This document shows positions 2,554 to 35,767 of a stretch of DNA of 64,000 nucleotides, piece after piece. Numbering within the stretch: the stretch's first letter is position 1; each line of letters begins with the position of its first letter. This DNA comes from Candidatus Hydrogenedentota bacterium (lineage in GTDB: Bacteria > Hydrogenedentota > Hydrogenedentia > Hydrogenedentales > SLHB01), in assembly GCA_963745075.1 (NCBI GenBank), contig CAVUWV010000018.1, forward strand, positions 96,001 through 160,000. Reading direction: 5' to 3'. The notes beneath the pieces were generated by a model, which made no database searches, was not told the DNA's origin, and saw nothing but the letters and a program-made list of their open reading frames with translations. The position numbers and the translations under genes are program-made.

Positions 2554-2633
2554 GATACTCCCTCCTGATTGCATCCGCCGTACATCGTAACAAACCCGGT
2601 CGCCCATTGATACGTGGAGCGCTTGAGTGCGTC

Positions 2634-3803
2634 TAGTGTATTGATTCATAATTAAGGCAACTTTTTAGTCTTGAAAGGTATTCATCTTGTAGTGGAGGAT
2701 GAATGCCATGAGACATGCTTGTGAAATCGTGCTGGATACGCAGGAGCAATTGACGCTGGAGAAATGGTCGAAAGGTCGCATGACGCCCGTGCGGGTAGTG
2801 TTGCGTGCAAAGATCGTGCTGCTGGCCGCCACGGGGATGGAGAACAAGGACATTGCCGTGGAGCTTGGCATTGGCCGCGATACGGTGGGTCAGTGGCGGC
2901 GCCGCTTTTTGGAGCGTCGTTTGGCGGGGCTCGTTAAGGATGCGCCCCGCGGCGGCCGCAAGCCCACGCGCCGGGAAGCGGTGGCGGGGCTGATCGTGGA
3001 GCGCACGACGCAGACCAAGCCCGCAAACGCGACGCATTGGAGCACCCGGACGCTGGCCAAGGAATTGGGGGTAAGCCCTTCGATGGTCCAGCGGGTCTGG
3101 CTGGCCAACGGCTTGAAGCCTCACCGCGTCAAGACGTTCAAGGTCAGCAACGACAAACAATTCGTCGAGAAAATGCAGGACATTGTCGGGCTGTATCTTA
3201 ACCCCCCCGAGCACGCGCTGGTGTTGTGCGCGATGAGAAGAGCCAGATTCAGGCGCTGGACCGGACTCAACCGGGACTGCCCATCAAGAAGGGCCGTTGC
3301 GGCACGATGACGCATGATTACAAACGCAACGGCACGACCACGTTGTTCGCGGCACTGGAATTGGCGGAGGGACGATTGATCGGCACGTGCATGCAACGCC
3401 ATCGGCATCAGGAATGGATCAAGTTTCTCAAGCAGATCGACTCCGAAACGCCGCCGGGCTGGACTTGCATCTGATCGTTGACAACTACGCTACCCATAAA
3501 CACCCGAAGGTTAAGGCATGGCTCAAACGGCATCCCCGCTTCCACATCCACTTCACGCCGACGAGCAGTTCGTGGCTGAACCTGGTGGAGCGTTGGTTTC
3601 GCGAGATCACCGACAAGCGGATACGGCGCGGCGTCTTCAAATCCGTCAAGGAACTTGTCGCCGCAATCATGGACTATATCCAGCACCACAATGCAGAACC
3701 CACAACCTTCACCTGGACTGCCAAAGCCGAAGACATCCTCGCCAAAGTCGCCCGCGCCAGGACACGGCTCGATAAGTTGGCAACAGCGTGAATCAATACA
3801 CTA
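2634..3803 (+). mobile_element. IS630-family insertion sequence
   Basis: Perfect 16-bp inverted repeat CTAGTGTATTGATTCA (2633-2648) / TGAATCAATACACTAG (3789-3804), including TA duplication in a CTAG target; internal transposase. Confidence 0.93.
2699..3791 (+). pseudogene. IS630 transposase, split by two -1 indels (~3230, ~3458); possibly assembly errors
   Basis: HTH N-terminus, then [34 protein letters not shown] and SSWLNLVERWF spread over three frames. Confidence 0.88.
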
Positions 3804-4029
3804 GCACGATGGATCCCCGCGTTTGAGAGAATAACGGTGGGGGGATTGTGGCGGTTTGGATCACGGGAAGACGTTCGATTGGCAGTATTTGTCTTCTTCT
3901 TTGTGTTTTTCGCACCTTCGTGGTTCACACCTATTGAACGTCTGCACCGTAGTAAAGAAAGAGGTTTCAGGACAAGCACTTGAGACTGGTGGGCGGGAGA
4001 AGACTCTCCCCTTTTGCGTCAAATGTGGC

Positions 4030-4058
4030 TTGCCGAAAATCGGTATTTGGAATACACT
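4030..4058 (+). promoter_or_regulatory. sigma70-type promoter for the small ORF at 4121
   Basis: TTGCCG-17 nt-TACACT. Confidence 0.5.
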
Positions 4059-4120
4059 TTTAAGTGGGTAGTGGGATGACAAAGTGGGCGGTGCCACTGG
4101 CACCGGAAAGGAGAGGAACT

Positions 4121-4243
4121 ATGGCGGTCGATGCAAGGGATTATGCTGTGTGGCGGGACAATCTGGGTCAGCTTCTGCTGGCCATCTTCCAGATTCTAAT
4201 TGGGCTCTTATTGCCTGCCATTCAATCGGCACGGAGGCGGTGA
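4121..4243 (+). CDS. Small 40-aa membrane peptide MAVDARDYAVWRDNLGQLLLAIFQILIGLLLPAIQSARRR (not in ORF track)
   Basis: AAGGAGAGG RBS directly upstream of ATG; upstream promoter; one TM helix ending in pilin-like LLLPAIQSAR. Confidence 0.7.
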   Translation: MAVDARDYAVWRDNLGQLLLAIFQILIGLLLPAIQSARRR

Positions 4244-4368
4244 GCCGAGGATGATTCAGCCGCGTTTGCAGGGACCTTAGCCTACTCCGGGTGGAACTTA
4301 CACGGATACAGACGGTTATAGACGGACTTTCGTGGAGTGGGCTTGGGGGGATCGCCGCGAGAACCCGT

Positions 4369-5082
4369 TCAGAGCAGCGAATCCAAGTAGGCGGGGACCG
4401 GGCTCTCAAAGTGGACCGGTTCTCCGCTGAAGGGGTGGCGGAATGATATCGAGCGTGCATGAAGGGCAATGCGTTTGTGGGCCTTGTCCTTCTCGCCGTA
4501 CTTTCGGTCGCCGACAATCGGGTGCCCGATGTCGGCGAGGTGTACGCGGATTTGATTCTTCCGTCCGGTTAGCAGGGTGATCTCGAGCAGACTGAACGCG
4601 GCGGTTTCCTTCAGGACTTGATACTGGGTGTGGGAGAGCTTGCCCTTCTTCGGATTCTTGGTTGAATACACGACCAGGGCGCTATTCTCGGCGAGATAGG
4701 ACGTGATCGTCCCGGAGGGTTTTGCGAGGCAGCCATGCACGACGGCACGATATTTCTTCTCGACCTGGTCCCATTGTCCTTGTAAGCGTTCCTTCGCCTC
4801 GGGAGTCTTTGCGAACACGAGGATTCCCGATACTTCCCGGTCCAGGCGGTGCACGATGAAGATGCGCTTCCGGGACTTTGCATTGCCCTTGCGGACATAG
4901 TTCGTCAGCCGGTAGTACGCCGTCTTGGTCCGTTCCTTGTCGGTCCCCATGGTCAGGAGGCCAGGCGCCTTGTCCACGACGAGGATGTCGCGGTCTTCAT
5001 GCAGCAGCGTAAGCCCTTGCAGCCGGCGAGCGTGCCTGGAGGATTTCGTGTCGGTCATCGTTGCCTTTCGTGCGCGCGGCAT
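4369..5082 (-). CDS. RluA-family RNA pseudouridine synthase (start may be 5058)
   Basis: VDKAPGLL, VHRLDREVSG (catalytic Asp), TGRKNQIRVH, GHPIVGDRKYG, LHA motifs. Confidence 0.95.
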   Translation of the reverse strand: MPRARKATMTDTKSSRHARRLQGLTLLHEDRDILVVDKAPGLLTMGTDKERTKTAYYRLTNYVRKGNAKSRKRIFIVHRLDREVSGILVFAKTPEAKERLQGQWDQVEKKYRAVVHGCLAKPSGTITSYLAENSALVVYSTKNPKKGKLSHTQYQVLKETAAFSLLEITLLTGRKNQIRVHLADIGHPIVGDRKYGEKDKAHKRIALHARSISFRHPFSGEPVHFESPVPAYLDSLL

Positions 5083-34715: not shown

Positions 34716-35609
34716 CTACGATCCCGAGTACTCTTCTTTCGACTGGCAGTCGAAGAGCCGGTTGTCTTTGGGGCCGAACCACCCGACGCCCCAACGCTGG
34801 TTCTGGCCGCCGAAGATATTGGGCGTGTCTGGCGCCCAACCGTATTGTTCGCACGTGACATGCCCGTCACACCAGACCACATTGGCCGTCATGTTATGAC
34901 GGAAATGGATGCTCGGGGACGAGTAGCCCCAGAGTTCGTTTCCGGTGGGCTCGTCGGACGTCACGAAGTACGGGGGTTCCAGAAATCCGTATTCGACGAG
35001 ATACCCGTTCTCCGGCATGGCCGCGTCCGCGAACATGATCGTGTTGGAGGGATTGAACACGCGGGAATCCTGGGTAGTTTGCGTCGGCGCGGTAAGGTAA
35101 TCATTCCGGTAGTAGGAACCACCCACGTACGATGCGTTGTAGCCGTATCCGCCCGTGCCGGACTCGAACGCGTTGGGCACTTCGCCCCGGCGGCGATACT
35201 CGAAGAATACGGGGCATTCCTTCACGCGCCCATCGGCCAGGTATTCGGCAAGCGGTCCTTTCTTCGGATCGAAGTCCGAGTCGGGGCTGGCCGTTTCCCG
35301 CACCCCGTGCCAGCGGACCCGGCCGCCGAACCCGTCGTTGATATCGGGGGCCGCAGGACAGTACCGGCCATCGTTTTCGTTCGCATACATGGTGTTTGCG
35401 AGGTACAACTGCCGCAGGTTGTTGACGCACTGCATCGAAAGCGCTTTTTGCCGTGCCCGGCTCAACACCGGCAGCAAGAGGGATGCAAGGACACTGATGA
35501 TCGCGATGACGACCAGCAGTTCTATCAAAGTGAATCCCGAGAATGGCGTGAATTGGCGGTACGCATGCGCGCCGCAGGTGCTGTGACGCGACGGTCTTTT
35601 GCTTAACAT
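34716..35609 (-). CDS. Prepilin-type N-terminal cleavage/methylation protein with C-terminal H-X9-DG motif (DUF1559-like)
   Basis: [49 protein letters not shown] before ATG 35609. Confidence 0.92.
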
Positions 35610-35767
35610 TCGGTTTTTCCTCCCCACTTCCGCAAAGTGCGTGTTCGCACGCGGTCGTATCGGTCATTGAAGCTCGATGTTCTCGCGGAAAAGTGGGCAG
35701 GAAATGGGTCGAAAACCGCGTCTCCTACTGCAACTTTTCCTCGAAGTTGCCGCAAGAACGGGCACCC

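Follow-up and report, generated by a model that had tools for sequence, protein, structure and literature searches.

The window analysed here is a stretch of 64,000 nucleotides from a Candidatus Hydrogenedentota bacterium (contig CAVUWV010000018.1, positions 96,001 to 160,000 of the forward strand). At 4121-4243 it holds an open reading frame (ORF) of 40 codons which, to judge from the way in which its sequence has evolved, is almost certainly a real gene. Its product, MAVDARDYAVWRDNLGQLLLAIFQILIGLLLPAIQSARRR, belongs to a family of micro-proteins that place unrelated heads on one motif, LIGLLLPA(I/V)Q, otherwise a feature of the stem helix of pilin-like proteins. The peptide is probably a membrane helix; that it serves as a decoy or modulator for whatever handles the motif is the explanation ranked first, and it is a tentative one. 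The original prediction for this locus named a promoter (TTGCCG and TACACT, 17 nt apart), a Shine-Dalgarno sequence and the ORF: all are where it placed them, and the signals are conserved among relatives. It also called the gene hidden. The gene is indeed unnamed, but its exact 40-residue sequence already stands in a protein collection (as P0002).

Conservation of the ORF

Throughout, G000 is the window's own genome and G001-G005 are the five other genomes of the same genus. In a protein search of 41 related genomes, strong matches to the ORF are confined to that genus: G003 (1.2e-12), G005 (2.5e-9) and G002 (8.1e-8). These orthologues and the window ORF make up type A of the family, which four of the six genomes of the genus have; the two in which it is not found, G001 and G004, are 81% and 72% complete. 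A single-sequence protein search restricted to near-equal length matched the ORF to itself alone.

The four-way DNA alignment shows that promoter, leader, ATG, frame and stop position are kept in G003, G005 and G002. The -10 columns do not vary among the four type A loci; the -35 hexamer reads TTGCCG in G000, G005 and G002, and TTGTTG in G003; sites of the GGAAAGGAG type lie upstream of the ATG in every orthologue. The single indel within the ORF, of 12 nt, is in frame and deletes DNLG from G005 and G002; indels of 1 nt between genomes break every reading frame of the leader. Averaged over pairs, DNA identity is highest in the ORF (0.70) and the promoter (0.69), lower in the leader (0.63) and upstream of the -35 hexamer (0.48), and lowest past the stop (0.39). 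Codon differences are weighted to the third position (8/4/18 for the G000-G005 pair, for example), and in the five distant pairs the proportion of synonymous differences (pS) is 0.67-0.73, which is near saturation, and that of nonsynonymous differences (pN) 0.14-0.24. A conserved small ORF under selection, for which the original prediction proposed to search related genomes, is what these genomes contain. Conserved signals and purifying selection together exclude a chance ORF, an assembly artefact or a decaying fragment, and the conserved start, frame and stop in the other genomes dispose of the collapsed fragment of a longer gene that had been named as the alternative. The ORF does lie within a stop-to-stop frame of 59 amino acids (4064-4243). 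A 59-residue product started at GTG 4064 is ruled out by the frame-breaking 1-nt indels upstream; in G005 and G002 the frame is also interrupted by stops, 14 and 26 codons before the ATG.

The same comparison bears on the notion that the ORF is a non-functional relic, a recombination chimera of a dockerin-bearing gene and a prepilin gene beside an insertion sequence (IS). An IS630-family element (2633-3804) and a 235-bp repeat do lie directly upstream, and both halves of the peptide resemble pieces of larger proteins. Both elements are missing from G003, G005 and G002, so that neither of them created the gene. Purifying selection on the ORF, and a start, a stop and signals that are kept even where IS and repeat are missing, make a relic most improbable.

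A family of micro-proteins with one invariant motif

The family profile matches in all six genomes of the genus. A scan of its taxonomic family (E up to 1e-4) finds matches in 7 of 54 genomes, the seventh being a 133-residue frame, and a scan of the phylum (E up to 1e-6) in 7 of 135, the seventh being a 207-residue frame. The short matches, of 24-46 amino acids, sort into about five types, A-E, with counts that rest on incomplete genomes. Type B (MKV.aPDGGTIV.GGILD..) occurs in G003, directly after type A, and in G005; the G003 protein is identical to an NCBI hypothetical protein of 'Candidatus Hydrogenedentota bacterium'. Type C (MGI(F/Y)DLL.., 24-29 amino acids), whose members have no head, is found in six of six genomes, 5' of a terminator and of a gene starting MRAVVQRV, presumably that of D-aminoacyl-tRNA deacylase. 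Type D (MG(G)DFDFDPI..) is found in two of the six, and type E (..DGDVDGRDFLIWQRGFG..) in G002, with a stop-bearing copy in G000:C24.

All types finish in (I/V/F)LIGLLLPA(I/V)Q plus 0-8 residues. Across all 21 aligned micro-ORFs, whose heads are unrelated, the residues G, L, L, L, P, A and Q do not vary. In G000 the type C copy matches the window ORF in the peptide motif but has no DNA similarity to it. For type C, compared across the six genomes, non-identical pairs give pS of 0.54-0.87 and pN of 0.04-0.21. Purine-rich sites comparable to the Shine-Dalgarno sequence of type A stand upstream of types B, C and D; terminator hairpins lie 3' of types C and D, of type B in G005 and of type A in G002; most units of the family look monocistronic. 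Scans of the micro-ORFs against Pfam and NCBIfam give no match, and the 40-residue ORF is without a Pfam family at E up to 10. The ESM Atlas holds no usable match for the peptide, PADLOC gives none, PHROGs reaches E = 0.04 at best, and a sequence search of the Protein Data Bank (PDB) returns the MerF transmembrane segment alone (E = 1.2).

Types A and B of G003:C3 (L010, 1215-1614) form a tandem with separate ribosome-binding sites, between oxidoreductase-like and RluA-type genes; no remnant of type B follows the window ORF. At G000:C13:166538-166606 (L007/L043) a startless copy lies amid stops, 375 bp upstream of an intact type C, and at G000:C24:381424-381507 (L004) a stop precedes a type E-like stretch. 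These two apparently decayed copies suggest that the family turns over by birth and death.

The motif as a piece of pilin stem

LIGLLLPA(I/V)Q corresponds to residues ~16-25 of mature pilin-like proteins of the Planctomycetota-Verrucomicrobiota-Chlamydiota (PVC) type, that is, to the stretch after the first half of the prepilin stem helix, including the helix proline. Type IV prepilins and pseudopilins of the type II secretion system (T2SS) of this kind (N_methyl, PF07963, often with DUF1559/SBP_bac_10, PF07596) have in common with the ORF the segment ..ILIGLLLPA(V/I)Q(K/S)(V/A)RE... The motif is at the same place in hundreds of Planctomycetota prepilins, and a genuine 154-residue prepilin of G001 carries the family motif at that stem position. 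The original prediction had aligned the C-terminal half of the peptide with a prepilin of the window: the alignment holds, with 21 ungapped residues of pilin alpha-1 type and 9 identities, but the comparison prepilin (34716-35627, 303 amino acids) lies on the minus strand and not on the plus strand.

The ORF shares with prepilins the hydrophobic stem helix with its proline. It lacks their leader, cleavage signal, N-terminal helix half, globular domain and placement among pilus or T2SS genes, and its predicted orientation is the opposite one. It starts MAVDARDY.., with no G|F cleavage site, no G-F-T-L-x-E and no E5, and it stops 5 residues past the motif at a position kept in the orthologues, which leaves no globular domain. 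On these three absences (G|F, E5, globular domain) the earlier description was right, as the sequence, the conserved stop and the lack of a Pfam match attest, and they rule out that the product is itself a prepilin.

Heads that look borrowed

Residues 2-19 of the peptide match residues 208-225 of P0135, a protein with Dockerin_1 (8.6e-15) and PEP-CTERM, at 67% identity and an hhalign probability of 94%. The dockerin-like head that had been proposed is real to this extent, but the aligned stretch is the helix (second) half of one dockerin repeat, where dockerin type I (PF00404) has two full repeats of ~22 residues, each with a full calcium-binding loop and helix. Identity as a dockerin is ruled out by this half repeat and by the lack of a Pfam match for the ORF. 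The regular expression D.xD[YF]..W[RKQ]..[FL]G has two matches in G000, the ORF and one apparently due to chance, and the Dockerin_1 matches of that genome are few, weak and of another flavour.

The head of type B resembles a conserved segment, DG.T(I/L)V(I/L/V)GG(L/I), inside the Secretin domain; in G000, which has seven Secretin-domain proteins, that segment occurs in three long ORFs with Pfam Secretin domains and in one other ORF. The resemblance is a second link to pilus or T2SS components. The heads look as if they had been borrowed from dockerin and secretin motifs and set on an invariant ten-residue piece of pilin stem.

A head of this kind might be the working part, with the helix as a membrane anchor that shows the half-dockerin (in type B, the secretin-like segment) at the surface to dock or nucleate a partner, in a scaffold role. 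In P0135 the sequence that matches the head, the second half of its repeat, precedes a C-terminal PEP-CTERM anchor that ends in basic residues, and P0045 and P0120 put a dockerin-like ..DFL.WQRG directly before GLLLPAVQ repeats. However, the half repeat is without the first half of the calcium loop, no other G000 protein has the head pattern, the Dockerin_1 matches are of the weak kind just described, no cohesin-like partner is known, and type C members have no head to display. A scaffold of this sort is very unlikely.

The motif in unrelated proteins

A search of 1.84 billion representative proteins with the family profile returns 1583 at E up to 1e-3. Among the best 150 of these, 82 have 2-9 copies of the motif and no prepilin signature, 19 have several copies and a prepilin signature, 24 are single-copy prepilins, 9 are micro-ORFs under 70 amino acids and 16 are other proteins. 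The multi-copy carriers include repeat proteins with a period of 53 residues (P0003, with 8 copies, P0005 and P0008), giant proteins of 3453-5355 amino acids, and proteins with short acidic repeats such as DDGLLLPAVQ (P0045, P0120). T6SS_HCP domains are found on carriers P0017 (73.3 bits), P0120 (30.9) and P0285 (26.4), and RTX repeats on P0284 and P0296. P0120 is built in the order Hcp part, dockerin-like VDGRDFLIWQRG and three copies of the motif, which is the head-plus-motif order of types A and E. The motif falls within no model of Pfam or NCBIfam. Its invariance under unrelated heads and its recurrence in unrelated proteins suggest that it behaves as a unit.

Some features of individual carriers may be added. 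P0003, P0005-P0010, P0012 and P0013 have 4-8 copies at a period of ~53 residues, reading ..DLGxGxD..LDLxxGxGDD(x)(V/I)LIGLLLPAVQKVREAAAR.., and an N-terminus of the form ..E.L(D/E).R.CLS... In P0285 three copies divide an Hcp-like domain into an N-terminal and a C-terminal piece. P0023 (217 amino acids) has a prepilin start, solenoid-type repeats after its first motif copy and DUF1559-like sequence after its third; it could reflect recombination at motif-coding DNA, or could be an assembly chimera.

A profile search of five named genomes (four of Planctomycetota and one Victivallis) finds 197 matches in four of them and none in Victivallis; among the 150 listed matches there is no micro-ORF, all lying in frames of 199-643 amino acids. 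The 18 loci found on contigs classed as viral (IMG/VR, L161-L178) are all full-length DUF1559-type prepilins with ..LIGLLLPAVQ.., in frames of 316-384 amino acids, and include no micro-ORF. In the literature searched, as far as the parts of the papers that were available go, the motif string and pilin-like bacteriocins are not mentioned, and papers on DUF1559 appear not to treat the motif.

Relatives with a double-glycine leader

When the profile search is restricted by length, ~20 clusters of micro-ORFs come out at the top. Six further clusters in the results (P0185, P0194, P0195, P0211, P0237 and P0243; 48-53 amino acids) have a double-glycine (GG) leader, ..EVD(Q/A)VNGG, followed directly by LVVIAIIAILIGLLLPAVQ.. 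and the stop. P0243 bears the source name (JGI) 'lactobin A/cerein 7B family class IIb bacteriocin'. On metagenomic contig L135 (437-4256) a GG-leader peptide is divergent from genes for an HlyD-family protein and a Peptidase_C39 ATP-binding cassette (ABC) transporter (1.3e-34); this peptide ends early, in ..LIGLLLPQ*, and its core is the pilin-stem helix. The available portions of the papers searched contain no description of a bacteriocin-like peptide of the L135 kind. A scan of genome contigs with P0243 gives 76 loci, of which all but L118 match its residues 20-48 only; L118 turned out to be an ordinary prepilin.

GG-leader class II bacteriocins and microcins, exported by C39 ABC transporters, include, as the subset of library peptides just listed, some with a core homologous to the helix of the ORF. 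Against this stands the absence of a GG leader and of a neighbouring exporter from the window ORF and its genus relatives: no C39 exporter or HlyD neighbour is found at the four type A loci, and G000 has no clear C39 transporter, its single match scoring 23.7 bits in a 257-residue frame. These facts frame a second account of the ORF, as a leaderless exported peptide, bacteriocin-like or signalling, which would act on other cells with the pilin-type helix as its 'warhead'. The account draws on the six clusters, on the name of P0243 and on the gene arrangement of L135; it would also fit the occurrence of the motif on T6SS_HCP and RTX proteins, which are secreted scaffolds, and the adjacency of types A and B in G003, which is like that of a two-peptide system. 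It is weakened by the missing leader, by the deletion from two orthologues of the DNLG that precedes the helix, by the lack of a transporter or immunity-like gene adjoining any of the four loci and the marginal C39 match of G000, by heads that are not cationic (net charges of -4 to 0), and by loci that are stable chromosomal sites. On balance, export is unlikely.

A more sweeping idea combines these observations: GLLLPAVQ(KVREAA) would be a portable recognition tag taken from the PVC-type pilin stem and deployed as a mimic by several routes, as stand-alone micro-proteins, as GG-leader peptides leaving through C39-ABC/HlyD exporters, and, in several copies at once, on secreted proteins of the Hcp, RTX and beta-solenoid kinds. 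Since the tag is missing from the pilins of the host, and since the two halves of the peptide are like motifs of other lineages, chiefly Planctomycetota, the target could be the pilin-handling systems of neighbouring bacteria. The tag would then define a class of 'pilin-poison' or pilus-docking peptides, which fits carriers exported by type I secretion, type VI secretion and ABC transporters. This is a speculative proposal, and a very improbable one as it stands.

The predicted product and what it might do

An AlphaFold2 (AF2) model from a 10-row alignment is a single helix over residues 5-39, with a mean predicted local distance difference test score (pLDDT) of 84.8. The best 19-residue Kyte-Doolittle window scores 2.19 in the ORF and 1.59-2.68 across 21 of 21 members, and the net charges of the 21 are -4 to 0 for heads and 0 to +3 for tails. 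At no more than 50 amino acids, and with a single hydrophobic stretch of membrane-spanning length, the product has the properties of a small single-pass membrane protein. By the positive-inside rule, basic residues mark the cytoplasmic side; with acidic heads and basic tails, an N-out/C-in orientation is predicted.

The explanation ranked first is an unprocessed single-helix membrane micropeptide that acts through its portable motif. A functional, monocistronic gene would make the 40-residue peptide, which would need no signal peptide to enter the cytoplasmic membrane, with the acidic, aromatic head facing out and the basic tail facing in. Small peptides of the Pf3-coat type insert N-out without a signal in this way. 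The invariant LIGLLLPA(I/V)Q would then make a helix-to-helix or motif-to-reader contact, which is the weakest step, and the peptide would be a decoy or modulator of whatever handles the segment: a pilin-like protein, assembly or processing machinery, or some other reader. This account is ranked first because the motif otherwise belongs to pilins and because the head of type B copies a secretin segment. It is plausible rather than probable; that the target is in fact pilin-type proteins or their machinery is possible but doubtful.

What weighs against the decoy or modulator is not negligible, and the proposal of the original prediction, that the peptide could plug, seed or regulate the pseudopilus machinery, finds no support in the data gathered here. 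The predicted orientation is the reverse of that of a pilin. Of the 47 N-termini of G000 with a prepilin signature, none has the form LLP[AS][IV]Q and ~20 read ..GILAAILLPALARAREAARR.. (ILLPALA); the peptide is therefore no copy of the host's own pilins, and its alignment with the neighbouring prepilin (9 of 21) is a family-level likeness and not a copy. No pilus, T2SS or peptidase gene adjoins any of the four type A loci, whose neighbouring genes differ among genomes. In the one confident AF2 model of five for P0008 (pLDDT 72.5, a beta-solenoid, treated as weak), VLIGLL forms a strand and PAVQKVRD loops of low confidence, so that a transmembrane helix may not be the mode of action of the motif in every protein. 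Finally, among the 19 sequencing runs listed, all of which share a small proportion of words with the sequence, none is of RNA.

Bacterial proteins such as MgrB and AcrZ, which are small, cross the membrane once and modulate larger membrane proteins, are precedents for such an activity. The window ORF is like that class in having under 50 residues, one span, its own promoter and ribosome-binding site and no signal peptide; it differs in having no sequence relation to it and in being built of modules, an invariant motif of pilin origin joined to borrowed heads that vary.

Small hydrophobic proteins with several chromosomal copies and long leaders are also known as type I toxins (Hok, TisB, Ibs), and the ORF might be one of several chromosomal copies of such a protein, under control of an antisense RNA. 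Small, hydrophobic and equipped with its own promoter, a conserved leader of ~60 nt and terminators, it has the general build of these genes, and there are several paralogous types per genome as well as the apparently decayed copies; the minus strand within the ORF has one match that resembles a promoter (4221-4193). Against this, in the predicted mRNA fold the ribosome-binding site is unpaired, where in type I toxins it is sequestered, and stability is not above that of shuffled sequence (z = +0.75). None of the other three type A loci keeps the antisense -10, and a scan of 3600-4500 finds no Rfam family at E up to 1. The leader has a small hairpin at 4089-4105, one of whose five pairs is altered on both sides in two of four sequences. 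A toxin of this kind would also leave unexplained why the invariant part is a pilin motif that recurs in secreted proteins; the identification is quite unlikely.

Whatever the mode of action, small membrane proteins regularly escape notice or receive no name, and here a family of about five types comes with strong evolutionary evidence of translation. The recurrence of LIGLLLPA(I/V)Q in exported bacteriocin-like peptides and in secreted Hcp, RTX and solenoid proteins points to a short linear motif with a putative reader among the functionally obscure PVC-type pilin-like (DUF1559) proteins, of which there are hundreds per genome; the identity of that reader would make the function of these proteins experimentally approachable and would define a new class of peptide mimics.

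The locus

The coordinates of the gene and of its surroundings are collected in Table 1. A promoter consensus scan left the promoter at 4030-4058 unflagged because only 8 of its 12 positions match, below the threshold of 9.

Table 1. Features of the micro-ORF locus and positions of the type A orthologues
Feature	Position	Strand	Remarks
-35 hexamer TTGCCG	4030..4035	+	read from sequence
-10 hexamer TACACT	4053..4058	+	17-nt spacer after -35; read from sequence
Non-coding leader, ~60 nt	4059..4120	+	mean identity 0.63 among four type A loci
Small hairpin	4089-4105	+	5 pairs; directly 5' of ribosome-binding site
Shine-Dalgarno AAGGAGAGG	4108-4116	+	4 nt 5' of ATG; read from sequence
Type A micro-ORF, 40 codons + TGA	4121..4243	+	ATG 4121, TGA 4241-4243
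Head, residues 1-16, MAVDARDYAVWRDNLG	4121..4168	+	half of dockerin-type repeat; net charge -1
Hydrophobic span, residues 16-35	4166..4225	+	best 19-residue Kyte-Doolittle window 2.19, from residue 16
Family-wide motif LIGLLLPAIQ	4196-4225	+	last ten residues of span; invariant motif
Basic tail SARRR	4226..4240	+	net +3
RluA-type pseudouridine synthase gene	4369-5082	-	convergent with ORF; PseudoU_synth_2, 2.8e-32
IS630-family element	2633-3804		31-nt inverted repeats 2633-2663 / 3774-3804, 77% complementary
235-bp repeat	3816-4052		between IS and promoter; second copy G000:C10:265618-265853 (L002 1501-1736), 75% identity
Type A orthologue, G003	G003:C3:80974-81087		short ATG-started open frame
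Type A orthologue, G005	G005:C204:7154-7261		short ATG-started open frame
Type A orthologue, G002	G002:C246:6685-6786		short ATG-started open frame

The ORF sits in a gap of 565 bp between the IS630-family element and the convergent RluA-type gene; the flanks consist of these two, oxidoreductase-like genes and others, and the nearest prepilin is 30 kb away. The gene next to the type A locus is of the RluA type in G000 and G003 and another gene in G005 and G002. A role as leader peptide, or upstream ORF, for a downstream gene is ruled out by the convergent orientation of the next gene, and in other types by the terminators that follow. Membership in the IS is ruled out as well, for its inverted repeats end at 3804.

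G000 has two copies of the 235-bp repeat, and none is found in the five other genomes of the genus. The repeat contains, in its right end, the -35 hexamer of the ORF promoter; no micro-ORF follows the C10 copy. The repeat also holds a terminator-like hairpin (3995-4010 plus a T-run). The transposase of the IS630-family element is split over at least three frames, with a helix-turn-helix (HTH) part at 2699-3310 (HTH_23), a middle part at 3226-3474 and DDE_3 at 3387-3791, and is therefore either broken or dependent on frameshifting.

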